From contig NZ_OZ245750.1 of the NCBI RefSeq assembly GCF_965227385.1, positions 3,360,552-3,424,551 of the forward strand: a DNA stretch of 64,000 nucleotides, given 5' to 3'. The stretch is from Sphingomonas sp. (GTDB lineage: Bacteria > Pseudomonadota > Alphaproteobacteria > Sphingomonadales > Sphingomonadaceae). The translations under genes were made by a program, and so were the position numbers. Under the pieces are notes generated by a model. It did no database searches, was not told where the DNA came from, and saw only the letters and a list, made by a program, of their open reading frames with translations. Shown piece after piece: positions 13,225-44,278 of the stretch. Positions within the stretch are counted from its first letter, which is position 1, and every line of letters begins with the position of its first letter.

Positions 13225-13341
13225 TCACGCGAAGGACATCAGCGCGCTTTCATAGGCGACCCAGCTCATGACCATCAGCGGGAGCGTCGCAAAGGCGAGC
13301 GCCACTGCGTTGCTTGCTCGATGTCCACGCGTATTTTTCAT
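13225..13341 (-). CDS. Small hydrophobic protein (38 aa), sigma54-promoter-associated
   Basis: MKNTRGHRASNAVALAFATLPLMVMSWVAYESALMSFA*; AGGAGG RBS at 13347-13352; -24/-12 element just upstream. Confidence 0.6.
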   Translation of the reverse strand: MKNTRGHRASNAVALAFATLPLMVMSWVAYESALMSFA

Positions 13342-13365
13342 CCAATCCTCCTGCGCCGCAGTGTT

Positions 13366-13381
13366 TGCAGGGCGCGTGCCA
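13366..13381 (-). promoter_or_regulatory. Putative sigma54 (-24/-12) promoter
   Basis: Minus strand TGGCACGCGCCCTGCA = GG-N10-GC with TGGCACG; expected TSS ~13355, just before the RBS of 13225-13341. Confidence 0.6.
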
Positions 13382-13508
13382 AATCGGCGATCGGCGGATT
13401 TCCGTCGGTTCTTCCGTTGGATCGTAAATGGGGAGTCGGACGCCGTACCAAAGTTCAGCGATTCTTACGGTGCCGCAACATTAGCTTGGGACGCCGCACC
13501 GTGGCAGG

Positions 13509-29283: not shown

Positions 29284-30768
29284 TTACTTCTTCTTGTTCA
29301 AAAACTTGGCGAGTTCTGGCGGGATGTTGCCGTCTCCGCCGGGAAGGCCCGGAAGCCCGCCGCCGGGACCGCCGAGCTTGCCCATCATGTCGCCCATGCC
29401 CGGACCGCCCAGCGCATTGCCGAGGCCGCCCATGCCGCCCTTGCCGAGCATGCCCAGCATCCCCTTGAGGCCGCCCATCTTCTTGAGCCGCTTCATCGCG
29501 GTTGACATTTCCTGGTGCATCTTGAGCAGCTTGTTCACGTCCTGAACGGTCGTGCCGCTACCCTTGGCAATCCGGATCTTGCGCTTCGCGTTGATCAGCT
29601 CGGGCTTGGCGCGTTCCTTGATCGTCATCGACGTGATGATCGCGTCCATCCGCAGCAGGATCTTGTCACCGCCGGCCTGTTCGACCGCGCCCTGCGCCTT
29701 CTTCATGCCCGGGATCATGCCGGCCAGCGCGCCAAGGCCACCCATCCGGCGCATCTGCGCAAGCTGGCCGCGCAGGTCGTTCATGTCGAACTGACCCTTG
29801 GCAAGCCGCGCCGCCATCTTCTCGGCGTCTTCCTGCTCGATCGCCTGTGCGGCCTTTTCGACCAGCGACACGACGTCGCCCATGCCGAGGATGCGGCCCG
29901 CGACGCGCGAGGGGTGGAACGGCTCGATCTGGTCGAGCTTTTCGCCGATGCCCGCGAACTTGATCGGCTTGCCGGTGACCGCGCGCATCGACAGCGCCGC
30001 ACCGCCGCGCGCATCGCCGTCCATGCGGGTCAGCACGACGCCGGTCAGCGGCACCTGATCGCTGAAGTTCTGCGCCACATTGACCGCGTCCTGGCCGGTC
30101 AGCGAGTCGACGACGAGCAGGATTTCTTGGGGGCGCGAGATGTCGGCAACCGCCTTCATCTCGTCCATCAGCTGCTGGTCGACGTGCAGACGGCCTGCGG
30201 TGTCGAGCATCAGCACGTCGAAGCCCTGGAGCTTCGCGGCCTGAATCGCGCGGCGGCCGATATCAACCGGCTGCTGGCCGGCCACGATCGGGAGGGTAGC
30301 GACCTCGATCTGGGTCCCGAGCACCGCCAGCTGTTCCTGCGCGGCCGGGCGATTGACGTCGAGCGACGCCATCATCACCTTCTTGCCCTGCTTCTTGAGC
30401 AGGCGGGCGAGCTTGGCGGTCGTGGTGGTCTTGCCCGAGCCCTGCAGGCCGACCATCATGATGACCGCGGGCGGGGTGACGTCGATCTGCAGCTCGGCCG
30501 TATCGGGGCCGAGCATCGCGACGAGCGCGTCGTTGACGATCTTGACGACCTGCTGCCCCGGCGTGACCGAACGCAGCACCTGCTGGCCGACCGCTTCCTC
30601 GGTCACCTTGTCGACGAACTGGCGCGCGACCGGCAGCGCGACGTCAGCCTCGAGCAGCGCGATACGCACTTCGCGCATCGCCGTCCGCACGTCCGCTTCG
30701 GTCAGCGCGCCACGGCCCTTGAGACGGTCAAATACGCCGCCAAGCCGTTCGCTCAGACTGTCAAACAC
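29284..30768 (-). CDS. ffh: Signal recognition particle protein Ffh
   Basis: GLQGSGKTTT, DTAGR, TRMDGDARGGAALS, Met-rich M domain; GTG start. Confidence 0.99.
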   Translation of the reverse strand: MFDSLSERLGGVFDRLKGRGALTEADVRTAMREVRIALLEADVALPVARQFVDKVTEEAVGQQVLRSVTPGQQVVKIVNDALVAMLGPDTAELQIDVTPPAVIMMVGLQGSGKTTTTAKLARLLKKQGKKVMMASLDVNRPAAQEQLAVLGTQIEVATLPIVAGQQPVDIGRRAIQAAKLQGFDVLMLDTAGRLHVDQQLMDEMKAVADISRPQEILLVVDSLTGQDAVNVAQNFSDQVPLTGVVLTRMDGDARGGAALSMRAVTGKPIKFAGIGEKLDQIEPFHPSRVAGRILGMGDVVSLVEKAAQAIEQEDAEKMAARLAKGQFDMNDLRGQLAQMRRMGGLGALAGMIPGMKKAQGAVEQAGGDKILLRMDAIITSMTIKERAKPELINAKRKIRIAKGSGTTVQDVNKLLKMHQEMSTAMKRLKKMGGLKGMLGMLGKGGMGGLGNALGGPGMGDMMGKLGGPGGGLPGLPGGDGNIPPELAKFLNKKK

Positions 30769-30990
30769 TCGCTTCTCCCATTGCTCTCAGGTCCGAAACG
30801 CATAAAACGCCGGCGGACGAAACCTCGTCGGCCAGCGTTGCCCGGGGGCATATGTCGTCGCGTTCGTGAGAACGGTCGGAGGCGCGCTTAGCCGCAAACC
30901 AAGATAAGTGCAACTCTCCCTGCGTTAACCCTCTTCCCGTCTTTGCCTTAACCCCTTCTACACGGTCCGCATGAGATATCCCCGGTTCGT

Positions 30991-32649
30991 ATGAAGGGGA
31001 GCAATTCCGGCATGTCGCTGGGCATCGACGACGACCAGAACGAGCGCAGTGGCGCCGGATCGGACCTGATCACGGGCGCGATCAGCGTTGCCGCGATCCT
31101 GATGTTCGTCGGCACCGGCAGCTCGGTGCTGTCCAAGACGCTGCGCCACTATCTGGAGGGCGCGGCCCCGGCCGATCGCACGCTGGTGATCGCATTGCTG
31201 CTCAATGTCGCGCTGATCCTGTTCGGCTGGCGCCGCCATCGCGGCCTGAGCAACGAAGTGCGCATCCGCGCCGCCGCCGAAGAGCGTGCGCAGATGCTGG
31301 CGAGCCGCGATCCGCTGACCGGCTTCCTCAACCGCCGCAGCCTGGCCGAGGAAGGCGCGGCGATGTTCGTGCGCGGGCAGAAGCGGCGCAAGGCGATGGC
31401 GATGATGATCATCGACCTCGACCATTTCAAGACGGTCAACGACATGCACGGCCACGCGGTTGGCGACGCGCTGTTGCGCGCGGCGGCGGGCGAGATTGCC
31501 GGCGCGATGCCGCCGATCGCGCTGACCGCGCGGCTGGGCGGCGACGAATTCGCCTGCGCCTTCCTGTTCGATCCGCAGCATCCCGACATGATCGAACGGA
31601 TTGCCGAGAAGCTGGTCGCGCAGATGGCGCAGCCGTTCGAAGCGGAGGGGCTGCGGCTGCATGTCAGCTGTTCGGTCGGCATCGCGCGGTCGGACTTCGA
31701 CTGTCACTCGATCGACTCGCTGATGCGATCGGCGGATATCGCGATGTATGTCGCCAAGAAATCGGGCCGCAACCGCTATGCCTGGTTCGACCATTCGATG
31801 GAGCGCGAGCTGCAGACGCGCAACGAGCTGGAAAACGGCCTGCGCACCGCGATCCCGCGCGGCGAGATCGTCCCCTATTTCGAACAGCAGATCGACCTGC
31901 AGACTGGAAAGCTGATCGGGTTCGAGGTGCTCGCCCGCTGGGAACATCCCACGCGCGGCCTGATCAGCCCCGAACTGTTCATCCCGATCGCCGAGGAAAC
32001 CGGCCTGATCGCGGACATGTCGCTCGCGTTGATGCATCAGGCATTCAACGCCGCGCGCGACTGGGACAGTTCGCTGACCCTGTCGGTCAACATCTCGCCA
32101 GTCCAGCTGCGCGACGCGTGGCTGGCGCAGAAGATCATCAAGGTACTGACCGAAACGCGTTTTCCGGCGAGCCGGCTGGAAATCGAGATTACCGAAAGCT
32201 CGCTGTTCGACAATCTCTCGCTCGCCCAATCGATCGTCGGCAGCCTGAAGAATCAGGGCGTCCGCCTGGCGCTGGACGATTTCGGCACCGGCTATTCCTC
32301 GCTCGCACACCTGCGCGCACTGCCGTTCGACCGGATCAAGATCGACAAGAGCTTCGTCATCTCATTGAACGAAAGCGCGGATTCGGCGGCGATCGTCAAT
32401 GCGATCGTGTCGCTCGGCGAAAGCCTCAACCTGCCGATCACCGCCGAGGGTGTCGAGGATGAGGCGATCGCAACGCGGCTCAAAGCATTGGGCTGTGCCA
32501 AGGCGCAGGGCTGGCATTATGGCAAGCCGCTGTCGGTCAGCGGTGCGCGCCGGCTGCTCGCCGAACGCCGCCTGCTGGTGCAATCTCCGCCAGTGCCGAC
32601 AATCGAGAGCGAATTGCCGGTGCAGGGCCCGGACCGGATGGCCGGATAA
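30991..32649 (+). CDS. Membrane-anchored GGDEF-EAL c-di-GMP enzyme
   Basis: Two N-terminal TMs, DPLTGFLNRR, RLGGDEF, FEVLARW, DDFGTGYSSL, KIDKSF, AEGVE. Start could be 31012. Confidence 0.93.
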   Translation: MKGSNSGMSLGIDDDQNERSGAGSDLITGAISVAAILMFVGTGSSVLSKTLRHYLEGAAPADRTLVIALLLNVALILFGWRRHRGLSNEVRIRAAAEERAQMLASRDPLTGFLNRRSLAEEGAAMFVRGQKRRKAMAMMIIDLDHFKTVNDMHGHAVGDALLRAAAGEIAGAMPPIALTARLGGDEFACAFLFDPQHPDMIERIAEKLVAQMAQPFEAEGLRLHVSCSVGIARSDFDCHSIDSLMRSADIAMYVAKKSGRNRYAWFDHSMERELQTRNELENGLRTAIPRGEIVPYFEQQIDLQTGKLIGFEVLARWEHPTRGLISPELFIPIAEETGLIADMSLALMHQAFNAARDWDSSLTLSVNISPVQLRDAWLAQKIIKVLTETRFPASRLEIEITESSLFDNLSLAQSIVGSLKNQGVRLALDDFGTGYSSLAHLRALPFDRIKIDKSFVISLNESADSAAIVNAIVSLGESLNLPITAEGVEDEAIATRLKALGCAKAQGWHYGKPLSVSGARRLLAERRLLVQSPPVPTIESELPVQGPDRMAG

Positions 32650-32652
32650 GTC

Positions 32653-33231
32653 CTACCAGCCGGCGTCCGGCCGCTTCAGATACTCCAGCTCCTCCGCCGT
32701 CGACTCGCGGCCAAGCGCTTCGTTGCGCGACGGGAAGCGGCCGAATTGTTCGATCACCACAGCGTGCTCCATCGCGAAGCGGAGATTTTCCGCGCGACCG
32801 AGTGCGGTGAATTTTTCGAGGCTCACCCGCTGCGCCTCGACATTTTCTGCGTGCATCAGCGGCATGTAGAGGAACGTCGCGCGCTCGGGCGCCATTTCGC
32901 GGTCCCAGCCCTTGCCGATCGCCTCCAGCGTGAGCGCCAGCGCGAGCGGGTCGGCGGCGAACGCCTGCGGCGTCCCGCGATGGATGTTGCGGCTGAACTG
33001 GTCGAGCAGGATAATCGCCGCGAGCAGGGCATCGGGATTGTCGCGCCAGCCCGCCGCACCGCTCGCCAGCACGACGTCGCGGGCGTGGCCGAAGCGGCGC
33101 GCAATCTCCGCATCGACCGCGTCGTCCTTGGCGAATTGCTGTTCGGGCTTCAGTTCGTCGAACCAATAGTCCAGCACCGCCTTCGCGCACGCATGGACTT
33201 CGATCCCGTGCGTCTCTAGATCGCCTGCCAT
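32653..33231 (-). CDS. DUF924-family protein
   Basis: VLDYWF, IILLDQFSRN, FLYMPLMHAE, FGRFPSRN; GGAGG RBS before ATG 33231. Confidence 0.9.
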   Translation of the reverse strand: MAGDLETHGIEVHACAKAVLDYWFDELKPEQQFAKDDAVDAEIARRFGHARDVVLASGAAGWRDNPDALLAAIILLDQFSRNIHRGTPQAFAADPLALALTLEAIGKGWDREMAPERATFLYMPLMHAENVEAQRVSLEKFTALGRAENLRFAMEHAVVIEQFGRFPSRNEALGRESTAEELEYLKRPDAGW

Positions 33232-34468
33232 GTCGTCCTCCATTGTCGCACCTGAGGTAATCAGCCTTGGCTGTCGGCTCAACCTTGCCGAAAGCGAAAC
33301 GATCCGCGCGCTGTTGGGGTCCAGCGACGTGGTGGTGGTCAACAGCTGTGCCGTAACCAACGAAGCGGTGCGCCAGACGCGCCAGGCGATCCGGCGCGCG
33401 CGGCGGGCGCGGCCCTCGGCGCAGCTGGTGGTGACGGGCTGCGCGGCGCAGATCGATCCGGCATCGTTCGGGGCAATGCCGGAGGTGGACCGCGTGATCG
33501 GCAATGCCGAAAAGCTGGTCCCAGCCTCATGGACGCGCGACGATGCGGCGCTGGTGCAGGATATCATGGCGGTGCGCCAGACCGCGCCGCACCTGGCCGC
33601 GAGCTTTTCCGCGCATGTCCGCGCCTTTGTCGAGGTGCAGAACGGGTGCGACCATCGCTGCACTTTCTGTGCGATCCCGTTCGGGCGCGGCAACAGCCGG
33701 TCGGTGCCAGCGGGCGCGGTGATCGAACGGGTGCAGGCTCTGGTCGATGCGGGGCATCGCGAGATCGTGCTGACCGGGGTCGACCTGACCAGCTACGGGC
33801 CCGATCTGCCCGGCGCGCCGACGCTGGGCCAACTGGTCGAGCGGGTGCTGGCGCATACGCGGGTCGAACGGCTGAGGCTGTCCTCGCTCGACGGGATCGA
33901 GATCGACGAGCGGCTGTTTGCTCTGCTGACGCAGGAGCGGCGGGTGCTGCCGCATGTGCACCTGTCGCTGCAGGCGGGCGACGACATGATCCTCAAACGG
34001 ATGAAGCGGCGGCATTCGCGGGCGCAGTCGGTGGAACTGGTCGCGCGACTGAAGAGGGCGCGGCCGGAGATTGCGATCGGCGCCGACCTCATTGCCGGCT
34101 TTCCCACCGAGGATGAGGCGATGGCCACGAACACGCTGGCGCTGATCGACGATTGCGACATCGTGCATGCGCACATCTTTCCCTATAGCCCGCGCGCGGG
34201 CACGCCGGCGGCGCGGATGCCGCAGGTTGCGCCGGGTGTCGCCAAGGCGCGCGCGGCGGCATTGCGTGAGCGGGCGGCGGAGCGGCGGACGAAGTGGTTG
34301 CGTGGGCTGGTCGGGACGAGCCAGCGGGTGCTGGTCGAGCGGCCGGGCGACCGGGGGCATGCTGAGAATTTCGCGGAAGTCATGCTTCCGCAGAGTGACA
34401 TTGGATCGGTGCAACAGGTGATGATCACGAACGTGCAGGACGACAAATTGATCGGAGCGCGCGCATGA
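33230..34468 (+). CDS. mtaB: tRNA t6A37 methylthiotransferase MtaB (radical SAM)
   Basis: LGCRLN, NSCAVT, CDHRCTFC, RLRLSS, HLSLQAG, GFPTE, FPYSPRAGT; start position uncertain. Confidence 0.93.
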   Translation: MSSSIVAPEVISLGCRLNLAESETIRALLGSSDVVVVNSCAVTNEAVRQTRQAIRRARRARPSAQLVVTGCAAQIDPASFGAMPEVDRVIGNAEKLVPASWTRDDAALVQDIMAVRQTAPHLAASFSAHVRAFVEVQNGCDHRCTFCAIPFGRGNSRSVPAGAVIERVQALVDAGHREIVLTGVDLTSYGPDLPGAPTLGQLVERVLAHTRVERLRLSSLDGIEIDERLFALLTQERRVLPHVHLSLQAGDDMILKRMKRRHSRAQSVELVARLKRARPEIAIGADLIAGFPTEDEAMATNTLALIDDCDIVHAHIFPYSPRAGTPAARMPQVAPGVAKARAAALRERAAERRTKWLRGLVGTSQRVLVERPGDRGHAENFAEVMLPQSDIGSVQQVMITNVQDDKLIGARA

Positions 34469-35397
34469 GCGGCCCGAGCTGGCGCGAGCGGTTGCTCGGC
34501 GGGTTCAAGAAGACGTCGGACCGGCTGGTCGGCAACCTGGCGGGACTGGGTACCGGGCGGCTGGACGAGGCGACGCTCGACGAGATCGAGGAGGCGCTGA
34601 TCGCGTCGGACCTTGGCCCCGCCACCGCGGCGCGGATTCGCGAGCGGTTGGCGGAGGAGCAGGTCGAGCGCGGGATGGAGGAGCTGGGCATCCGGCTGGT
34701 CGTCGCCGACGAGATCGAGAAGGTGCTGACCAAGGTCGCCAAGCCGCTGATCACCGACAAGGCCCGGCCGCAGGTGATGCTGGTGATCGGCGTCAACGGA
34801 TCGGGCAAGACCACGACCATCGCCAAGCTCGCCGCGATCCTGAAGGATCAGGGGCTTAAGGTGATGGTCGCGGCGGGCGACACGTTTCGCGCGGCTGCCA
34901 TCGGCCAGCTGCGGACCTGGGCCGAGCGGATCGGCGTGCCGATCGTCGCGGGGGCCGAGGGCGGCGATGCCGCAGGGGTCGCGCATGAGGCGCTGCGTCG
35001 CGCGACCGCCGAGGGGATCGACCTGCTGATCGTCGACACCGCCGGGCGGTTGCAGAACAAGCGCGAGCTGATGGACGAGCTGGCGAAGATCCGCCGCGTG
35101 CTGGGCAAGCTCGATCCCGACGCGCCGCATGACGTGCTGCTGGTGCTCGACGCGACCACGGGCCAGAATGCGCTCAACCAGATCGCGGTTTTTCAGGAAG
35201 TCGCCGGCGTCACCGGCATGGTGATGACCAAGCTCGACGGCACCGCGCGCGGCGGCGTGCTGGTCGCGGCGGCGGAGAAATACGGCCTGCCCATCCACGC
35301 GATCGGCGTCGGCGAGAAGGTCGACGATCTGCGCGGATTCGACCCGCGCGAAGTGTCGCGGATCATCGCCGGGGTGGAGGCGTTGACCAAGGGCTGA
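34465..35397 (+). CDS. ftsY: SRP receptor FtsY
   Basis: GVNGSGKTTT, DTFRAAA, DTAGRLQN, TKLDGTARGG. Confidence 0.98.
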   Translation: MSGPSWRERLLGGFKKTSDRLVGNLAGLGTGRLDEATLDEIEEALIASDLGPATAARIRERLAEEQVERGMEELGIRLVVADEIEKVLTKVAKPLITDKARPQVMLVIGVNGSGKTTTIAKLAAILKDQGLKVMVAAGDTFRAAAIGQLRTWAERIGVPIVAGAEGGDAAGVAHEALRRATAEGIDLLIVDTAGRLQNKRELMDELAKIRRVLGKLDPDAPHDVLLVLDATTGQNALNQIAVFQEVAGVTGMVMTKLDGTARGGVLVAAAEKYGLPIHAIGVGEKVDDLRGFDPREVSRIIAGVEALTKG

Positions 35398-35452
35398 CCG
35401 CCCCGCGTCCAGTTTTCTTCGACAAGCCCGGCGCCATTTGTAGAGTGAGTGC

Positions 35453-36094
35453 ATGACCGAATCCACGACGTCCCAAAACCCGGGCAAGCCCGCCCCTACC
35501 CCCGGCCTGCGCATGCTGATCGATTTCGGTCCGCTGGCGGTGTTCTTTGCCGTGAACAGCTTCATGGGCGGGCCGCAGCTGACGCGGATGCTGGCGGCGA
35601 CGGCGGCGTTTATGGTCGCGATCTTCCTCGCCATGGGGCTGTCGCTGTGGAAGACGCGGCATATCTCGCCGATGCTGTGGATCTCCGGCGTGCTCGTGCT
35701 GGTATTCGGCGGGCTGACCCTGTGGTTCCACAACGACACGTTCATCAAGGTCAAGCCGACGCTCGTCTATGCGATGTTCGCGATCGTCCTGATTTACGGC
35801 CTGATCACCAAGAAGCCGCTGCTGCAAATGCTGCTCGAGAGCGCCTATCCCGGGCTGACCGCGCGCGGGTGGCGGTTGCTCACGATCAACTGGGCGGTGT
35901 TCTTCGTCGTGATGGCCGTGCTGAACGAGATCGTCTGGCGCACGCAAAGCTGGGATTTCTGGGTCGCGTTCAAGCTGTGGGGCGTGGTGCCGCTGACGCT
36001 GTTGTTCGCAATCGGCAACGTGCCGTTGCTGCTGCGCCATGGGCTCAAGACCGATGGCGAGATCGTCGACAAGGCGCTGCCGCCGGAGCAGTAA
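35453..36094 (+). CDS. yciB: Inner membrane-spanning protein YciB (IspZ)
   Basis: DFGPLAVFF, FGGLTLWF, FIKVKPT, WVAFKLWG; follows ftsY. Confidence 0.92.
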   Translation: MTESTTSQNPGKPAPTPGLRMLIDFGPLAVFFAVNSFMGGPQLTRMLAATAAFMVAIFLAMGLSLWKTRHISPMLWISGVLVLVFGGLTLWFHNDTFIKVKPTLVYAMFAIVLIYGLITKKPLLQMLLESAYPGLTARGWRLLTINWAVFFVVMAVLNEIVWRTQSWDFWVAFKLWGVVPLTLLFAIGNVPLLLRHGLKTDGEIVDKALPPEQ

Positions 36095-36113
36095 GCGCAC
36101 ATCCGACCGCATC

Positions 36114-36218
36114 GTCACCCCGGCCCTGTGCCGGGGGCCACCGTGCGGCACGCGCGTCGCTCCAGGCTATTGCGTCGCGCTCGCCGATCCGTGGGCCCCG
36201 GCACAAGGCCGGGGTGAC
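36114..36218. repeat. REP-like palindrome (GTCACCCCGG...CCGGGGTGAC type)
   Basis: 28-bp arms gtcaccccggccctgtgccgggggccac / gtgggccccggcacaaggccggggtgac with 2 mismatches; ends GTGACAAAGG like 6607-6695. Confidence 0.8.
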
Positions 36219-36284
36219 AAAGGTTTGAATCAAAACGGGCCGAGGTTGCCCCCGGCCCGCTTCCTCGATCGATGATCGCGTGGA

Positions 36285-36902
36285 TCAGCCGGCCTGGTCG
36301 GCGCGGCTGACGCCCTCGCCGTCTAGGTTGGCGGCGACGAAATCCCAGTCGATGATCTTGGTGATCGCTTCCAGATAGCCCGGACGCGCGTTGCGGTAGT
36401 CGATGTAGTAGGCGTGCTCCCACACGTCGATCGTCAGCAGCGGCTTGTAGTCATAGACGACCGGCGTGTCGGCGTCGTGGAGCGAGGTCACCTTGATCTC
36501 GTCGCCGTCGAGCACGAGCCAGCCCCAACCGTTCGAGAAGTGCGCGGTGGACTCGGCGATGAGCTGCTTGACCAGCTCTTCCTTCGAGCCGAACTTGGCT
36601 TCGATCAGCTCGGCGAGCTTGCCGGTCGGCTCCTTGGGCTCCGGCGTCAGGCCGAACCAGTAGAAGCTGTGGTTCCAGATCTGTGCGCTGTTGTTGAACA
36701 GGCCCTTGTCGCCGGTTTCCTTGGCATGCTGGATCACCTCGACCAGCGACTTGCCCTCAAGCCCCTTGTCCGCGACGAAGCCGTTGGTCTTGTCGACATA
36801 GGCCTTGTGATGCTTGCCATAGTGGAACTCGAGCGTTTCGGCCGAGATCGTCGGCGCGAGCGCGTCCTTGGCATAGGGGAGCGTGGGAAGTTCGAACGCC
36901 AT
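36285..36902 (-). CDS. sodB: Fe superoxide dismutase
   Basis: HYGKHH, AQIWNH, DVWEHAYY. Confidence 0.95.
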   Translation of the reverse strand: MAFELPTLPYAKDALAPTISAETLEFHYGKHHKAYVDKTNGFVADKGLEGKSLVEVIQHAKETGDKGLFNNSAQIWNHSFYWFGLTPEPKEPTGKLAELIEAKFGSKEELVKQLIAESTAHFSNGWGWLVLDGDEIKVTSLHDADTPVVYDYKPLLTIDVWEHAYYIDYRNARPGYLEAITKIIDWDFVAANLDGEGVSRADQAG

Positions 36903-36997
36903 GGGATTACCCTCCGTTTTTTGGTTCGCGACCGCCTAACGCATGACGCCCATGATTGCCGCACAAATTTTTCTGCGGACTGGATCGAGTGGGGCGA

Positions 36998-38032
<1,035 letters not shown>

Positions 38033-38133
38033 GCCGAACTCTTGGGATATTTTCCCAAGTTTTGGCAAGTGCGAAGTTTGAGCCGCACCGCCTTTCGGTA
38101 AGAAAACGGCGGAAATCTGCGAAAAAAGCGAAT

Positions 38134-38149
38134 TGGCACGCCCCGTGCA
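38134..38149 (+). promoter_or_regulatory. sigma54 (-24/-12) promoter of the psp operon
   Basis: TGGCACGCCCCGTGCA (GG-N10-GC), between pspF and pspA. Confidence 0.8.
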
Positions 38150-38208
38150 AAGTTGCCGGCATGCCGCGAAGGGCGGCAACGAAACGAAGAAATCGAGGGA
38201 CGGAAACA

Positions 38209-38355
38209 ATGTATAAGGGCAACAACAGCTTTCGCACGACGCTGGCGGCGCTGGTCTGCACCCTGATCGTCAGCACCACCAGCCTGGCAACCGTGGTCGG
38301 CCCCGCCGTCACGGCGACGGATGGGGTCGCAGTTTCCACCCGAGCCATCGCGTAA
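38209..38355 (+). CDS. Small hydrophobic protein (48 aa), first ORF after the psp promoter
   Basis: MYKGNNSFRTTLAALVCTLIVSTTSLATVVGPAVTATDGVAVSTRAIA*; GAGGGA RBS. Confidence 0.6.
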   Translation: MYKGNNSFRTTLAALVCTLIVSTTSLATVVGPAVTATDGVAVSTRAIA

Positions 38356-38361
38356 GCGATC

Positions 38362-38395
38362 CCGCCGGGCGGGCACCCCCTAGTCCGCCCGGCGG
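38362..38395 (+). other. 11-bp GC hairpin between the small ORF and pspA (no U-tract)
   Basis: ccgccgggcgg-N12-ccgcccggcgg. Confidence 0.6.
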
Positions 38396-38422
38396 CACGA
38401 GTTTCCAAGGAGCTAAGTTCAG

Positions 38423-39091
38423 ATGGGCATTTTCTCTCGCACCCGCGATATCATCGCCGCCAACTTCACCGACCTGCTCGACAAGGCGGAAGACCCGGCG
38501 AAGATGATCCGCATGATCATCCTCGAGATGGAGGAGACGCTGGTCGAGGTTCGCGCCAGCGCGGCCCGCACCATCGCCGACCAGAAGGAAATGCGCCGCC
38601 ACATCGCCAAGCTGGAAAACCTCCAGATGAGCTGGACCGAGAAGGCCGAGCTGGCGCTGAGCAAGGACCGCGAGGACCTGGCCAAGGCTGCACTGGTCGA
38701 GCGCCAGAAGGCGTATGACATGTGCGATCAGCTGAATGCAGAGATCGCGGTGCTCGACGATGCGCTGCGCGCGTCGGAAGAGGACATCGCCAAGCTGCAG
38801 ACCAAGCTGCGCGACGCCCGTGCCCGCCAGAACGCGATCATGACCCGCCTGGAAAGCGCCAACAACCGCGTCAAGCTGCGCGAGATGACCCACGGGTCGA
38901 AGGTCAGCGACGCGTTCAGCCGCTTCGACCTGCTCGAGCGCCGCGTCGACTTTGCCGAGGGCCGCGCCGATGCGCTGGCACTGGGCGCGCCGAAGAAGTC
39001 GCTGGAAGAGGAAATCGCCGAGCTCCATTCGGCCGAAAAGGTCGATGCCGAGCTGGCCGCGCTCAAGGCGCGCCTGAACAAGGGGAATTAA
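38423..39091 (+). CDS. pspA: Phage shock protein A
   Basis: MGIFSRTRDIIAAN, EDPAKMIR, long coiled coil, FDLLERRV. Confidence 0.97.
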   Translation: MGIFSRTRDIIAANFTDLLDKAEDPAKMIRMIILEMEETLVEVRASAARTIADQKEMRRHIAKLENLQMSWTEKAELALSKDREDLAKAALVERQKAYDMCDQLNAEIAVLDDALRASEEDIAKLQTKLRDARARQNAIMTRLESANNRVKLREMTHGSKVSDAFSRFDLLERRVDFAEGRADALALGAPKKSLEEEIAELHSAEKVDAELAALKARLNKGN

Positions 39092-39094
39092 GCC

Positions 39095-39376
39095 ATGGAA
39101 GACGTGTTTCTTCCGATCATCATCGTCGGCATGCTCTTCATCGGCATGCCCTGGGTCATCCTCCACTATGTCACCAAGTGGAAGCAGGCCAAGACGCTGA
39201 CCGGCGAGGACGAGAATCTGCTGGACGAGCTGCACTACACCGCACGCCGCCTGGAGGATCGTCTCCACACCATCGAGCGGATCATCGCCGCCGACAATCC
39301 CGAGTTCCGCATCCGCAGCACCGAAACGCCGCCGGTTCGCGAGCTCCCCGACTATGAACGCGCACGGAGGAACTGA
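39095..39376 (+). CDS. pspB: Envelope stress membrane protein PspB
   Basis: LFIGMPWVILHY, ARRLEDRLHTIERII..DNP. Confidence 0.93.
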   Translation: MEDVFLPIIIVGMLFIGMPWVILHYVTKWKQAKTLTGEDENLLDELHYTARRLEDRLHTIERIIAADNPEFRIRSTETPPVRELPDYERARRN

Positions 39377-39377
39377 G

Positions 39378-39755
39378 ATGTCTGTCAGCCGCACGCAACT
39401 GTACCGCGACAAGGTCAACGGCAAATGGCTCGGCGTCTGTGAAGGGCTGGGCGAATATACCGGGGTCGACCCGCTGTGGATCCGCCTGGGCTTCTTGGCC
39501 CTGCTGGTCGCAACCTTTCCGCTGATGTTCTTCGTCTATATCGGCCTCGCCATGATCACCTCGCAGAAGCCGCTCGGCCTCTACGACAATGCCGAGGAAG
39601 CGAAATTCTGGCAGGGCGTGCGGGCCAACCCGCGCCGCTCGACCCAGGAAGTCCGCTCCAAGCTGCGCGACATCGATCGCCGCATGGCCGACATCGAGAC
39701 ATTCTACACGAGCCGCAACACGCAGCTCGCCGACGAGATCGAGCGCCTGCGCTGA
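39378..39755 (+). CDS. pspC: Envelope stress membrane protein PspC
   Basis: LYRDKVNGKWLGVCEGLGEYTGVDPLWIR PspC domain. Confidence 0.93.
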   Translation: MSVSRTQLYRDKVNGKWLGVCEGLGEYTGVDPLWIRLGFLALLVATFPLMFFVYIGLAMITSQKPLGLYDNAEEAKFWQGVRANPRRSTQEVRSKLRDIDRRMADIETFYTSRNTQLADEIERLR

Positions 39756-39784
39756 CAGCGCGCGCTCAACAGGAGGGAAGTATC

Positions 39785-40075
39785 ATGAGTTGGGGTGGAC
39801 CGGGTTTTGTTATCGCGATCATCGCGATCTCGACCTTCGGATGGCTCGCTTCGACCTGGATCCGCGCCAAGCACGGATATCCGATCGAAAATGAGTGGAC
39901 CGGCACGACCGAGAAGCCGGACGCCGGCGCGGCCCGCAAGATCGAGCTGCTGACGAGCGAGAACGAGCGGCTGACCGGGCAGATCAGCCGGCTGGAGGAG
40001 CGGATCGCGGTGCTTGAGCGCATCGCCACCGACCCCGCCGAACGGACCGCCCGCGCCATCGACGCGCTGCGCTGA
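39785..40075 (+). CDS. PspB-like small membrane protein 1
   Basis: N-terminal TM plus coiled coil ending LEERIAVLERIATD...IDALR. Confidence 0.82.
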   Translation: MSWGGPGFVIAIIAISTFGWLASTWIRAKHGYPIENEWTGTTEKPDAGAARKIELLTSENERLTGQISRLEERIAVLERIATDPAERTARAIDALR

Positions 40076-40088
40076 AGGGACCGACCTA

Positions 40089-40409
40089 ATGGACAAGCTC
40101 TCCTTTTTCACCGCACTGGCCCCCACGATCGCCATCGTCGGCGTGGCCGGGATGATCGGGTGGATGTTCACCACCTGGCTCCGCATCAAGAATGGCTATC
40201 CGCTCGACGGGGCCTGGGGCCAGGCGGTCTATCCGCAGAAGAACGAAGAGATGATCGAGCGGATCAAGCTGATCAGCCAGGAAAATGCCCAGCTCCGCGC
40301 GGAATTGGGTTCGGTCAAGGACCGGCTGGCCAATGTCGAGCGGATCGTGACCGACAGCAGCCACGCGCTGGATCGCGAGATCGAAGCGCTGCGGGTGGGC
40401 AAGAATTGA
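40089..40409 (+). CDS. PspB-like small membrane protein 2
   Basis: TM, NGYP, KDRLANVERIVTD..LDREIEALR. Confidence 0.82.
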   Translation: MDKLSFFTALAPTIAIVGVAGMIGWMFTTWLRIKNGYPLDGAWGQAVYPQKNEEMIERIKLISQENAQLRAELGSVKDRLANVERIVTDSSHALDREIEALRVGKN

Positions 40410-40419
40410 GGACCTGACG

Positions 40420-40701
40420 ATGGGCGACAAACAGAGCTTCATACTCGGCTTCTTCTTCATCGTGGTCGGTATCCCGGTGATCCTCGGCGTCGGCGGCGAC
40501 ATGTTCCGGCGCTGGCTGAAGCACAAGGAGAAGATGGCCGAAGCGCTGAGCGCACAGACCGCCGAGAAGGCCGCGCAATATGCGGCGCATACCGAGCGGC
40601 TGGAGCAGCGGGTGCGGGTGCTGGAGCGGATCGTCACCGACAAGGGCCTGGACCTGTCGGACCAGATCGAACGGCTGCGCGACGAGCGGCCGGTGAACTG
40701 A
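40420..40701 (+). CDS. PspB-like small membrane protein 3
   Basis: TM, LEQRVRVLERIVTD..LSDQIERLR. Confidence 0.82.
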   Translation: MGDKQSFILGFFFIVVGIPVILGVGGDMFRRWLKHKEKMAEALSAQTAEKAAQYAAHTERLEQRVRVLERIVTDKGLDLSDQIERLRDERPVN

Positions 40702-40731
40702 ACCACCGAATTTTGTTAGGGAGTATCTACC

Positions 40732-40863
40732 ATGTTGATCGGAGTTTTCGCGGTGCTGGGCGTCATTGGCGCGATCGGCGTCACGATGGCCGAGATGCGC
40801 GACCGCCCCGCCCGCCGTGCCGAGCGGCTGGCGCGCGAAGCGGCGGCTCAGCCGGCCGAGTAA
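40732..40863 (+). CDS. Small single-TM protein (43 aa)
   Basis: Hand translation MLIGVFAVLGVIGAIGVTMAEMRDRPARRAERLAREAAAQPAE*; AGGGAG RBS. Confidence 0.65.
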   Translation: MLIGVFAVLGVIGAIGVTMAEMRDRPARRAERLAREAAAQPAE

Positions 40864-40906
40864 GCCCGACCGGGCTGGCACCAGAACAGACGAACAGGAG
40901 GCAGGT

Positions 40907-41173
40907 ATGGATTGGGCGTTCATGGTGGTCGCGATCGTGGCGATCGTAACCATCGGCAACATCGTCCGCGCCAAGATGGGCATCCAGAAGGACAGCCGCG
41001 GCAACGACTATGTCCCCCATGATCCCGCGGCGAGCGCCGAAGCCCGCCGCCTGGAGCAGGAAGTGCGCACGCTCAAGGACCGTATCGCGGTGCTGGAGCG
41101 GGTGATCACCGACAATCATTCGAGCGTCAGCCTCGACCGCGAGATCGAGAAGCTGCGCGACGGACGGAACTGA
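40907..41173 (+). CDS. PspB-like small membrane protein 4
   Basis: TM, LKDRIAVLERVITD..LDREIEKLR; AGGAGG RBS. Confidence 0.82.
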   Translation: MDWAFMVVAIVAIVTIGNIVRAKMGIQKDSRGNDYVPHDPAASAEARRLEQEVRTLKDRIAVLERVITDNHSSVSLDREIEKLRDGRN

Positions 41174-41214
41174 ATTTTGACGCAACTGAAGTCCGGCCCC
41201 GGTCGGAGGAGGAT

Positions 41215-41463
41215 GTGATGACTGACCCCAATTTCTACATGGTCATGGCGCTGGCGACCCTTGCGGGTCTCGGGATGGTGACCGGAGCGAGCCTGGCCGG
41301 ATGGCGCGGCTGGCTGGCGCTGAAGCGGCAGGAACTGTCGCTGGTGCATCAGGGCGAAACGCCCCAGGCGGCGCAGGGCAATGCCGGCGCACGGATCGAG
41401 ATCGCGGACCTCAAGGAACGCATCCGCAAGCTCGAGGCGATCGCCGCAGGCGTGGACCTCTAA
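41215..41463 (+). CDS. PspB-like small membrane protein 5 (divergent)
   Basis: TM, DLKERIRKLEAIA; GGAGG RBS. Confidence 0.75.
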   Translation: MMTDPNFYMVMALATLAGLGMVTGASLAGWRGWLALKRQELSLVHQGETPQAAQGNAGARIEIADLKERIRKLEAIAAGVDL

Positions 41464-41570
41464 CCAACCCCCGGAGCAGCGGCGGACGGTTGGGAGGCCA
41501 CCGCCACTGCACCACGGGAGCGGCAGCTGCAGACGCCGCTCCCACCCCAAGACCCAGAGTAAGTCTTGAC

Positions 41571-42437
41571 CTAGTCGATCACGCGGTGACGCTTAAGAAA
41601 GGTCACCGCATCGGCCATCAGCCGGTCCTGCACCTCGGGACCGAATTTCCCATGTACCCCGCCGGACACGATGTGCAGCTCGGCCGGCACCTTCGCCCGG
41701 TCGAGCGCGGCTTTCAGGGCGGTCGAGGCGGCGAACGGGACGACCGGATCGGCATCGCCATGGACGATGAACACCGGCGGCAGGCCCGGACGGACGCGGG
41801 TGATCGGCGACATGCGGGCGGCCATCGCGGCGCCCGCCTCCCCTTCCCCGACCCATTTGCCGATCGAGGGGCTGTTCCAGGCGCCCAGTGATTGCGGGCG
41901 CAGGTCGGTCGGTCCGTAGAAATCGATCACTGCAGCGGCGCGCGGCGCGGGTCCGCACTCCGCCGGGTCCAGCCCCTCACGCTTGTCGATTGTTGCCGCC
42001 ATCAGCGCCAGATGCGCGCCCGCCGATGTGCCCATCAGCACGATCTTCTGCGGGTCCAGCCCTTCCCGCTCCGCCGCACGCGCAATCCAGCCCATGACGC
42101 ACCGGACATCCTCGACCGCCGCAGGCGCGCGCGCCTGGCCCGACAAGCGATACTGCATGCTGACCACCGCGAACCCGGCATCGACGAAGCGACGATAGCT
42201 GGTCCAGCCCTTGGGCCGCTCGCCGCGCGCCCAGGCTCCGCCATGGATGACGACGAGCACCGGCGCACGCTTGCCCTTGGCGGTGCTTGGGCGGTGGAGG
42301 TCGAGATGCAGCGGGCCGGTATCGGTCGCGCGATAGACGACCTCGCGCTCGCTCACGACAGCCGGTTGCGACTGTCGCGCGGGCGCGGGCGCCGCCAATA
42401 TCGTCGTTGCCAGTCCCAGCCCGATCCATCTCAGCAT
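41571..42437 (-). CDS. Exported alpha/beta hydrolase (BD-FAE/HSL-like esterase)
   Basis: HGGAW, GTSAG, HGDADPVV, HG; signal peptide. Confidence 0.88.
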   Translation of the reverse strand: MLRWIGLGLATTILAAPAPARQSQPAVVSEREVVYRATDTGPLHLDLHRPSTAKGKRAPVLVVIHGGAWARGERPKGWTSYRRFVDAGFAVVSMQYRLSGQARAPAAVEDVRCVMGWIARAAEREGLDPQKIVLMGTSAGAHLALMAATIDKREGLDPAECGPAPRAAAVIDFYGPTDLRPQSLGAWNSPSIGKWVGEGEAGAAMAARMSPITRVRPGLPPVFIVHGDADPVVPFAASTALKAALDRAKVPAELHIVSGGVHGKFGPEVQDRLMADAVTFLKRHRVID

Positions 42438-42533
42438 CCACGCGCTCCTCTACCGTCAGACCAGCCTAGGGGCCGCGCGTCCCTGCACGCAAGACCGGGT
42501 GACGCGGGCGCGTGGTCCCGCTAAGGGCGCGGC

Positions 42534-42941
42534 ATGACCAGCCTGTCCGACCTGACCGACGAATATGAGTTTCTCGACGCCGACGACCGCTACCGGTTGC
42601 TGATCGACCTGGGCAAGGCGCTGGAGCCGATGCCCGATGCGCTCAAGACCGATGCGACACTGGTGCGCGGCTGTTCGGCGGCGGTGTGGGTCTATCCCAC
42701 GGTGCGGGACGACGGGACGCTCCACTTTCTTGCGGACAGCAACGCCGCGATCACCAAGGGGATCATCGCGCTGGTCCTGCTGACGGTACAGGATCGCGCG
42801 CCGGGCGAGATTCTGGCGACGGATATCGAAGGTGCGCTGGCGCCGTTCGACCTGCGCAACCAGCTCAGCTCCAACCGGACTCAGGGCATCCCAAACATGA
42901 TCGCACTGATCCGCGCGACGGCGGAACGCTACGCCGGATGA
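42534..42941 (+). CDS. sufE: SufE-family Fe-S sulfur acceptor
   Basis: RYRLLIDLG, VRGCSAAVW, ADSNAAITKG, LSSNRTQG. Confidence 0.9.
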   Translation: MTSLSDLTDEYEFLDADDRYRLLIDLGKALEPMPDALKTDATLVRGCSAAVWVYPTVRDDGTLHFLADSNAAITKGIIALVLLTVQDRAPGEILATDIEGALAPFDLRNQLSSNRTQGIPNMIALIRATAERYAG

Positions 42942-44278
42942 GCGCGGAGGGGGGCAAGCTCTACCGCGCGATCTGGCGCTGGCATTTCTATGCCGGATTG
43001 TTCGTGGTGCCGTTCATCCTGCTGCTGGCGCTGACCGGGGCAATCTATCTGTTCAAGCCGCAGCTCGATGCGTGGCAGGAGCGCGACTGGCGCAACCTGC
43101 CCGTCACCGGGGTGGTGACGCCCGACGCGCAGTTGAAGGCCGCGCTCGCCGCGGTGCCGGGTGCGAGCTTCCACAGCTATCGCCTGCCCGCAGCGGCCGG
43201 TGACGCCGCGGTCATCCATGTCGGGCTGGCCGAAGGGGGCATGCGCGACATCGCCGTGTCGCCACAGGGCGTGGTGGTCGCGGTCGACCATCCCGAGGCG
43301 CGGATCGCCGCGACCGTATCACGCATCCATGGCTCGCTGCTGCTTGGTCAATGGGGCGGGCTTCTGGTCGAGATTGCGGCGAGCTGGGCGATCCTGCTGA
43401 TCCTGTCGGGCCTGTACCTGTGGTGGCCGCGTGGGCGCGGACTGGCGGGCGTGCTGTGGCCGCGGCTAGGTGCGCATGGGCGCGTCATTTGGCGCGATCT
43501 GCATGCGGTCACCGGCTTTTGGGTTTCCGGGCTGGCGCTGGTGCTGCTCGTGTCGGGCCTGCCCTGGACCGATGGCTGGGCGACCGCCTTCCGCGCGGTC
43601 CGGGCCGAGCTGGGTCTGGTGCAGGGGCCGCAGCAATGGAAGGGCGGCGTCGATCTGCATGCCGAGCATGACCATGACGCGATGCTGCGCGCGGCGGCGG
43701 GCGGCAAGCCGGTGCCGATCGGCATGACGCTGACCGACATGGTGCAGCGCGCGCAGGCAGAGGATGTCGCCGCCCCCGCGATCCTGTCCCCACCCGGCGC
43801 GCCCGCGCAGTTCGGCCCGCCCAATGGCAATGTCTGGAAGCTGACCAGCGAAACGCAAAACCGCCCGGTTGCCCGCACCGTGACCTTCGATCCGATGACC
43901 GGCGACGTGCTTGCGCGCAGCGGCTTTGCCGACAAGCACCCGATCGACCGGGTGATCGGGTATGGCATCGCATGGCATGAGGGCCAGTTGTTCGGATGGG
44001 TCAACCAGCTGGTCGGCGTGTTGACCGCGCTGGCACTGATGCTGCTGGCGGTGAGCGGTATCGTCATGTGGTGGCGGCGACGGCCCCAAGGCTCGCTTGG
44101 CGCGCCGCCGCGTCCTGCCGACGCAAAGCTGCGCGTCGTGGCGGGGATCACCCTTATCATGGCGGCGCTGCTGCCGATGCTGGCGCTGTCGCTGATCGCG
44201 GTGTTCGTCTTCGACCGGCTGATCCTGCCGCGCTTTCCGCGCGCGGCACGCTGGTTCAACCGTACCCGCCCGGCCTGA
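42938..44278 (+). CDS. PepSY-associated TM helix domain protein
   Basis: WRWHFYAGL, LTGAIY, IHGSL, LSGLYLWWP, RDLHAVTG, WHEG; ATGA overlap with sufE. Confidence 0.9.
   Translation: MSAEGGKLYRAIWRWHFYAGLFVVPFILLLALTGAIYLFKPQLDAWQERDWRNLPVTGVVTPDAQLKAALAAVPGASFHSYRLPAAAGDAAVIHVGLAEGGMRDIAVSPQGVVVAVDHPEARIAATVSRIHGSLLLGQWGGLLVEIAASWAILLILSGLYLWWPRGRGLAGVLWPRLGAHGRVIWRDLHAVTGFWVSGLALVLLVSGLPWTDGWATAFRAVRAELGLVQGPQQWKGGVDLHAEHDHDAMLRAAAGGKPVPIGMTLTDMVQRAQAEDVAAPAILSPPGAPAQFGPPNGNVWKLTSETQNRPVARTVTFDPMTGDVLARSGFADKHPIDRVIGYGIAWHEGQLFGWVNQLVGVLTALALMLLAVSGIVMWWRRRPQGSLGAPPRPADAKLRVVAGITLIMAALLPMLALSLIAVFVFDRLILPRFPRAARWFNRTRPA

Follow-up and report, generated by a model that had tools for sequence, protein, structure and literature searches.

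An array of small PspB-like membrane proteins follows pspABC in Sphingomonas and recurs across the Sphingomonadaceae

In the genome of a Sphingomonas sp., the genes pspA, pspB and pspC are followed by a run of six small co-oriented genes, here called S1 to S6, four of which (S1, S2, S3 and S5), together with the divergent S6, are placed by profile comparison as ancient paralogs within the PspB superfamily. The window that was analysed is a stretch of 64,000 nucleotides (NCBI RefSeq assembly GCF_965227385.1, contig NZ_OZ245750.1, positions 3,360,552 to 3,424,551 of the forward strand), and the coordinates below are positions within it. An earlier inspection of its letters and open reading frames (ORFs), the sequence-only reading, had delimited the array as 39095-41463, and these limits are indeed where pspB starts and where the final small gene has its stop codon. 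The explanation that we favour, with a probability of roughly 0.55, is that the S proteins are PspB-type anchors whose cytoplasmic zipper would pair with PspC, PspB or PspA, tuning or localising the Psp response.

All six genes lie on the forward strand, with gaps of 29, 13, 10, 30, 43 and 44 nt from pspC through S6. S1 (96 aa; 39785-40075) combines a transmembrane (TM) helix with the motif WIRAKHGYP and the segment …LEERIAVLERIATDPAERTARAIDALR; its PspB-like neighbour S2 (106 aa; 40089-40409) has a TM helix, RIKNGYPLDGAWGQAVYP and …KDRLANVERIVTDSSHALDREIEALR. The next paralog, S3 (93 aa; 40420-40701), carries …AEKAAQYAAHTERLEQRVRVLERIVTD…QIERLR and S5 (88 aa; 40907-41173), which belongs to the minimal core set described below, …LKDRIAVLERVITDNHSSVSLDREIEKLR. 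Between these two sits S4 (43 aa; 40732-40863), a TM mini-protein that has a basic tail and lacks any PspB-like motif, and the array is closed by the divergent S6 (81 aa; 41218-41463), with a TM helix, WRGWLALK and …ARIEIADLKERIRKLEAIAAGVDL. Each of the six has a single N-terminal hydrophobic helix and, 6-11 nt upstream of its start, a purine-rich stretch resembling a ribosome-binding site, weakest in the case of S2, much as the sequence-only reading had described them. As all are also conserved at the protein level in related genomes, S1-S6 are real genes.

The full motif LERIxTD...EIExLR is found in S1, S2, S3 and S5, which retrieve one another by phmmer (E 1e-5 to 1e-16) and share 12 invariant positions when aligned, including R, ER, TD, I and the tail LR. 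With alignments made from 35 loci, their orthogroup profiles match mutually at 98-99.7% by hhalign. A profile of these four genes, searched against the whole 3.97-Mb genome, recovers the same four (E 5e-26, the value for S3, to 1e-47), and the sole other match is the tail of PspC (E 0.03). S6 retains the first half of the motif only (DLKERIRKLEAIAAG) and is tied to the family solely at the profile level (hhalign, 94%). S4 compares with the family at 27% and is unrelated to it by this measure. It is restricted to some genomes of the same genus: of the 35 loci put side by side, five (that of the window counted) have kept it, with the motif ER.DRPRRRA in a tail of the form ER.DRPRRRAER. The signature that the sequence-only reading had seen in five of the small genes is thus complete in four of them, halved in S6 and absent from S4.

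Beyond the array itself, the family profile matches PspB at 95.5-95.7% (E about 1e-8), spanning the TM helix plus the following helix, and residues 88-127 of PspC at 95.9% (E 6e-9), whereas PspB and PspC compared directly with each other reach 22%. Because coiled coils invite false positives, the comparisons were repeated with reversed alignments, which gave 1-14% (9-10% in the case of PspB). The sequence-only reading had taken the small proteins for membrane paralogs of PspB that share a motif with PspB and the PspC tail, and these comparisons bear it out: the cytoplasmic domain of the S proteins is, as judged by profiles, homologous both to the part of PspB that lies in the cytoplasm and to PspC's C-terminal tail. 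Direct matches to TIGR02976, PF06667 and TIGR02978, although they stay under the cut-offs, point the same way. With PspB they share the architecture of an N-terminal anchor plus helix; with PspC they share the whole tail including the terminal EIExLR, which fits the published view of the PspC tail as a divergent PspB domain (Ravi et al., 2024, mSystems, PMC11237479). A search with S5 returned 1281 homologs at E<=0.01, mostly Sphingomonas 'hypothetical proteins', along with a few named 'Phage shock protein B' in UniRef.

Like the PspB proteins of E. coli and Yersinia enterocolitica, the S proteins are of about 75-105 aa, with a predicted short N-out end and a single TM helix, are probably encoded in the pspA operon, and possess a predicted cytoplasmic amphipathic helix with the pattern R...(L/I)ER(I/V)..(A/T)D. 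Unlike PspB, they score under the family cut-offs, have the additional C-terminal EIExLR segment that is otherwise a property of PspC, and are present as four to five copies besides a canonical PspB. Similarly, their entire C-terminal domain aligns to the PspC tail including its terminal motif, which reads ERYVTS...L..EF..L in enterobacteria and IETFYTSRNTQLADEIERLR in the window. Unlike PspC, none of the S proteins matches the PspC domain PF04024 (cryptic TM, conserved Arg, TM), and the tail is attached directly to the N-terminal TM anchor.

The distribution of charges points to the same topology as that of PspB. In every orthogroup the flank preceding the TM helix is of 2-8 residues with about 0 K/R, and the 15 residues following it contain 2.3-4.0 K/R per orthogroup; the corresponding values for PspB are 0 and 2.6. 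Applied to these counts, the positive-inside rule predicts that the conserved domain is cytoplasmic and that the S proteins consist, as does PspB, of a short N-out end, one TM helix and a cytoplasmic helical domain. An AlphaFold2 model of S5, made with 30 homologs, agrees with this prediction in placing a TM helix at residues 3-24, a loop, and a single long helix at 40-87. A sequence search of the PDB found no solved relative, only weak coiled-coil and TM look-alikes (KcsA, E 6e-4). With periplasmic N-termini of merely 2-8 residues or so, any input to the S proteins would have to come through the TM helix or cytoplasmic partners, and nothing supports the suggestion of the sequence-only reading that they are tuned, for example, to different secretins or else to an envelope built with glycosphingolipids. 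The alternative of a signal peptide, as in the 'SIG+PspB' of Ravi et al., was rejected, since the charge distribution argues for an N-out/C-in anchor; the 'SIG' label in their table most likely reflects the N-terminal helix having been taken for a signal peptide. As a separate observation, S1 and S2 display a cytoplasmic juxtamembrane motif, W(I/L)R(A/I)(K/R)(H/N)GYP(L/I)(E/D)..W, straight after the TM helix, which is kept across genera and is absent from S3, S5, S6, PspB and PspC.

A survey with the profile of the shared motif, of the kind that the sequence-only reading had proposed, shows how widespread the family is. Matches were found in all 24 genomes of the same genus (2-5 each) and, across the Sphingomonadaceae in the sense of GTDB, in 134 of 151 genomes, representing 101 of 112 genera, with 1-7 copies per carrier genome (median 3, S6 not being counted). 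Other families of the order have 0-2 copies, some situated after pspC and others alone. In the rest of the class, two genomes outside the Sphingomonadaceae were positive among 401 sampled, both from one other family, in a search that scored at most 14 candidates per genome and may have missed weak matches.

The gene order is equally persistent. The loci of 22 genomes of the same genus present a sodB-like gene, pspF, a small leader ORF (X), pspA, pspB, pspC, a variable subset of S1-S5, S6 and sufE, and 20 loci from other genera of the Sphingomonadaceae show the same order with one to eight genes downstream. Allowing for contig ends and for three loci without an S6 call, the order from pspF through X, pspA, pspB, pspC and the S genes to S6 and sufE holds in 23/23 same-genus and 20/20 other-genus loci, and in 38 of these 43 loci S6 closes the array ahead of sufE. 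At its smallest, the set is reduced to S5+S6 or, in a Zymomonas-like genome of 2.1 Mb, to S5 alone. The genes are also tightly packed: of the 190 junctions measured in related loci, 94% are of 60 nt or less and 29 overlap or abut, the median gap being 24 nt.

Presence of the S family also tracks that of PspA. Among the 151 Sphingomonadaceae genomes, 133 have both, 12 neither, 5 PspA only and 1 the S family only (Fisher p 4e-13); with 18 genomes of other families added, the counts become 145, 16, 6 and 2 (Fisher p 1e-15), and although these p-values overstate independence because the genomes share ancestry, the pattern is clear. Two of the five Sphingomonadaceae genomes with PspA only are fragmented assemblies, and the one with the S family only is 66% complete. 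The co-occurrence holds even where the S gene does not adjoin the psp genes. Together, the conserved synteny, the compact spacing and this genome-wide association with pspA uphold the view of the sequence-only reading that the array belongs with the Psp system.

Several observations weigh against our preferred reading. None of the S proteins reaches a curated PspB cut-off: the best direct score is that of S3, with 18.0 bits against PF06667 (cut-off 25.6) and 23.3 bits against TIGR02976 (cut-off 51.7), and S1, S2 and S5 give at most 18.4 bits or no match with these models. The PspC model TIGR02978 aligns to the S proteins over its last 40-50 positions only, at 18-20 bits (cut-off 104). In a library of 1.8 billion proteins the S-family profile also catches long, unrelated multi-repeat coiled-coil proteins, so its signal is partly compositional, and the region on which the homology is based is a short helical, coiled-coil domain. 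The S5 model is a monomer of moderate confidence (pLDDT 67), as would be expected for a subunit in need of partners. Finally, as detailed below, some S-like genes stand away from psp and have no sigma-54 box upstream, which indicates that the family can work outside the operon.

The first of these observations invite the reading that the S proteins are Psp-independent membrane coiled-coil proteins, which simply occur on one transcript or in one neighbourhood with pspABC and owe their likeness to PspB and PspC to convergent coiled-coil composition. The sub-threshold scores with direct hidden Markov models (HMMs) and the cross-reaction of the profile with long coiled-coil proteins and, weakly, with the C-terminal bundle of KcsA in the PDB would be in keeping with it. 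We nevertheless regard it as very improbable: the match drops from 95% to at most 14% in the reversed-profile controls, the motif positions are in register (TM plus helix with PspB, terminal EIExLR with PspC), the co-occurrence with pspA is strict (p 4e-13), the synteny is conserved in 43 loci, and the family is present in 101 of 112 genera.

The lone S-like genes encode proteins of 73-90 aa (…LEERVRVLERIxTDKxxxLxxEIDxL) and were seen at nine loci in other families of the order. No sigma-54 box was found upstream of any of the nine, and the neighbours at the eight that were compared are not conserved (rpoD and a GAF-domain gene are among them) and give no functional clue; PspA is nonetheless encoded in the genomes in question. 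The S family may ancestrally have been such a stand-alone gene. In a maximum-likelihood tree built from 158 sequences, S2 is monophyletic (24 rows, SH-aLRT 97), alongside an S1 clade of 26 rows (SH-aLRT 99) and an S5 clade of 38 rows (SH-aLRT 95). As each of these clades mixes genera, they represent old paralogs that have been kept separately and not a recent amplification.

Under our preferred explanation, the S genes are probably transcribed with pspABC from a PspF/sigma-54 promoter, consistent with their synteny with pspA and pspC, their tight spacing and a sigma-54 box upstream of pspA. If carried on that transcript, they would rise with PspA under membrane stress. In Yersinia and E. coli, PspB and PspC form an inner-membrane complex, and when the system is on, PspC binds PspA by means of its cytoplasmic C-terminal domain and PspF is set free (PMC5596341). 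By analogy, the S zippers would use the same surface as PspB and PspC and oligomerise at the membrane, either with themselves or with PspC, PspB or PspA; the Psp response could thereby gain further anchors or switch subunits, which would determine its threshold or its location, with the TM and juxtamembrane segments that differ by orthogroup supplying different membrane inputs.

The same induction would also suit S proteins acting purely as effectors, which stabilise the stressed inner membrane themselves, for instance as zipper oligomers, in the manner of E. coli PspG and PspD, neither binding PspA, PspB or PspC nor affecting signalling. The position of the S genes speaks for this, as accessory psp genes come and go at the distal end of the operon (PMC3041696), as do the range of copy numbers among genomes (0 to 7) and the lone copies in other families. 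Like PspD and PspG of the enterobacterial PspF regulon, the S proteins are small, distal or accessory, lineage-restricted membrane proteins. However, PspG is unlinked and polytopic and PspD peripheral, and neither has a sequence relationship to the S proteins: no such family is among the Pfam or NCBIfam matches of S1-S6 at E<=1. Moreover, what is conserved in the S proteins is not a membrane-active segment but the domain that mediates the contacts among PspB, PspC and PspA in the systems studied. We accordingly consider a purely effector role unlikely.

The homology to the cytoplasmic domain of PspB also raises the prospect that the S proteins are silencers or decoys, which either take the place on the PspC tail that PspB has in the off state or titrate PspA, so that a co-induced negative feedback resets the response. 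Going by the titles of two studies (Flores-Kim & Darwin, 2015, 2016, cited in PMC5596341), contacts of PspB's cytoplasmic domain with that of PspC silence the response, that of Yersinia in the later one, and the presumed co-expression of the S genes with pspA from one promoter would provide the feedback. On the other side, no feature of the sequences tells activation from silencing, nor can the sequences separate either from an effector role, and simple titration would not call for five orthogroups that parted long ago and differ in their juxtamembrane motifs. We hold this role to be quite unlikely.

The anchoring role that we prefer can be taken further, to a form that we put forward only as a speculation. 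Here, a fixed set of ancient PspB-type anchors, with S5+S6 as the core and S1, S2 and S3 as accessories, would combine their zippers in various ways with the PspC tail and PspA; membrane insults of different kinds, sensed by different TM and juxtamembrane segments (the GYPL(E/D) motif in S1 and S2 is one example), would then set free or seed the ESCRT-III-like polymer of PspA, each at its own sites. If true, the combinatorial anchor set would give a bacterial ESCRT-III a front end with several receptors. The sequence-only reading had likewise suggested a possibly combinatorial sensor or adaptor set, which stands as a hypothesis.

The way in which membrane damage is perceived by PspB and PspC, and PspA passed on from PspF to the membrane, is still a question in E. 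coli and Yersinia too. Extra copies of the contact domain, kept as conserved orthogroups by an entire bacterial family, constitute a natural experiment on the partners and specificity of that domain. The Zymomonas-type genomes, in which just one extra copy stands between pspC and sufE, offer a simple genetic entry point, as do the genera with S5+S6 only; the practical gain is modest.

The arrangement itself has been published before. PspB duplicates occurring in the operon were reported by Ravi et al. (2024, PMC11237479), whose Table S3 lists for Erythrobacter litoralis (AOL22920.1) the same order of pspF, X, pspA, pspB, pspC with a PspB-like tail, S1, S2, S3, S5 and S6, to which the window adds the unrelated 43-aa S4. 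That account comprises one sentence and one table row, without orthogroups, distribution or function. The window is thus one more instance of a catalogued variant, to which the distribution, topology and co-occurrence data are added here, and not a new kind of system. The sequence-only reading had known of no functional description, which was right as to function, since our literature search on PspB-like proteins, PspB paralogs and the sphingomonad psp genes found no functional study, but the layout was already on record. In the sphingomonad Zymomonas mobilis the psp genes are induced by ethanol (PMC3495753), and Zymomonas studies report the induction of pspA, pspB and pspC by ethanol and furfural and a hypothetical gene, ZMO1062, between pspF and pspA. 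The Zymomonas literature that we consulted does not mention a gene between pspC and sufE; ZMO1066, the S gene of Zymomonas, is not named in it and is missing from the ethanol-stress supplement.

Upstream of the array, the genes have the organisation of a putative PspF-controlled operon. The gene for PspF, a sigma-54 enhancer-binding activator, is divergent from the rest (36998..38032, reverse strand; start set at MERTTHV) and was identified from its ORF and from syntenic PspF matches in all related loci. A sigma-54 type sequence found by eye, TGGCAC-GCCCC-GTGCA (38134..38149, forward strand, as are the elements that follow), is the putative promoter, and a TGGCAC-N5-(C/G/T)TGC(A/T) box is at the equivalent place in 22 of 26 related loci scanned. 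A loose pattern, TGGC-N7-TGC, had no match in 29331-42979, although it is blind to the psp promoter as well, in which 8 nt separate TGGC from TGC. The gene pspA (38423..39091) scores 278.8 bits with TIGR02977 (cut-off 242.95) and 130.7 bits with PF04012, and is the only PspA/IM30 gene in the genome. It is followed by the canonical pspB (39095..39376), with 94.3 bits for PF06667 (cut-off 25.6) and 79.6 bits for TIGR02976 (cut-off 51.7), and by pspC (39378..39755), with 111.1 bits for TIGR02978 (cut-off 104) and the PspB-like C-terminal tail …DIDRRMADIETFYTSRNTQLADEIERLR.

Between the promoter and pspA is the leader ORF X (38209..38355), which encodes a conserved hydrophobic peptide of 48 aa (MYKGNNSFRTTLAALVCTLIVSTTSLATVVGPAVTATDGVAVSTRAIA). 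An ORF of 35-52 aa with the motif SAT.V.GAVGPA is present at this position in nearly all loci of the same genus, and at three loci of other families the place is taken by another conserved small ORF. ORF X matches the 'X' of Table S3 of Ravi et al. and probably corresponds to ZMO1062 of Z. mobilis; its product may be a leader peptide or attenuator, or else one more small protein of the Psp system. A GC-rich hairpin of 13 bp (38362..38396; fold -42.8 kcal/mol, z -4.9) separates X from the ribosome-binding site of pspA, for which an attenuator, a processing site or a stabiliser are candidate roles. At the other end, two GC-rich hairpins (41473..41543, forward strand; fold -49.6 kcal/mol, z -3.4) lie 3' of S6 between convergent genes and likely mark the end of the operon, with a terminator function that is tentative as they have no U-tract. 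A scan of 37900-41700 for sigma-70 promoters and terminators gave nothing above shuffled sequences, the one forward-strand terminator-like match within the array being a weak 5-bp stem at the stop of S3, and an Rfam scan of 36000-43000 found no RNA family.

Past these hairpins, between S6 and sufE, is a convergent gene for an esterase/lipase-like alpha/beta-hydrolase with a signal peptide (41571-42437, reverse strand). As sufE directly follows S6 in almost all related loci, it looks like a lineage-specific insertion; in one related locus a homolog of the hydrolase is on the opposite side of pspF. Elsewhere in the window, at 13225-13385 on the reverse strand, there is a second sigma-54-like box, TTGGCACGCGCCCTGCA, near-identical to the psp promoter, TTGGCACGCCCCGTGCA, and CGGAAATC is found 15-16 nt upstream of both boxes. 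It is followed by AGGAGG and a hydrophobic ORF of 38 aa (MKNTRGHRASNAVALAFATLPLMVMSWVAYESALMSFA), which is possibly an unlinked member of the PspF regulon, analogous to pspG.

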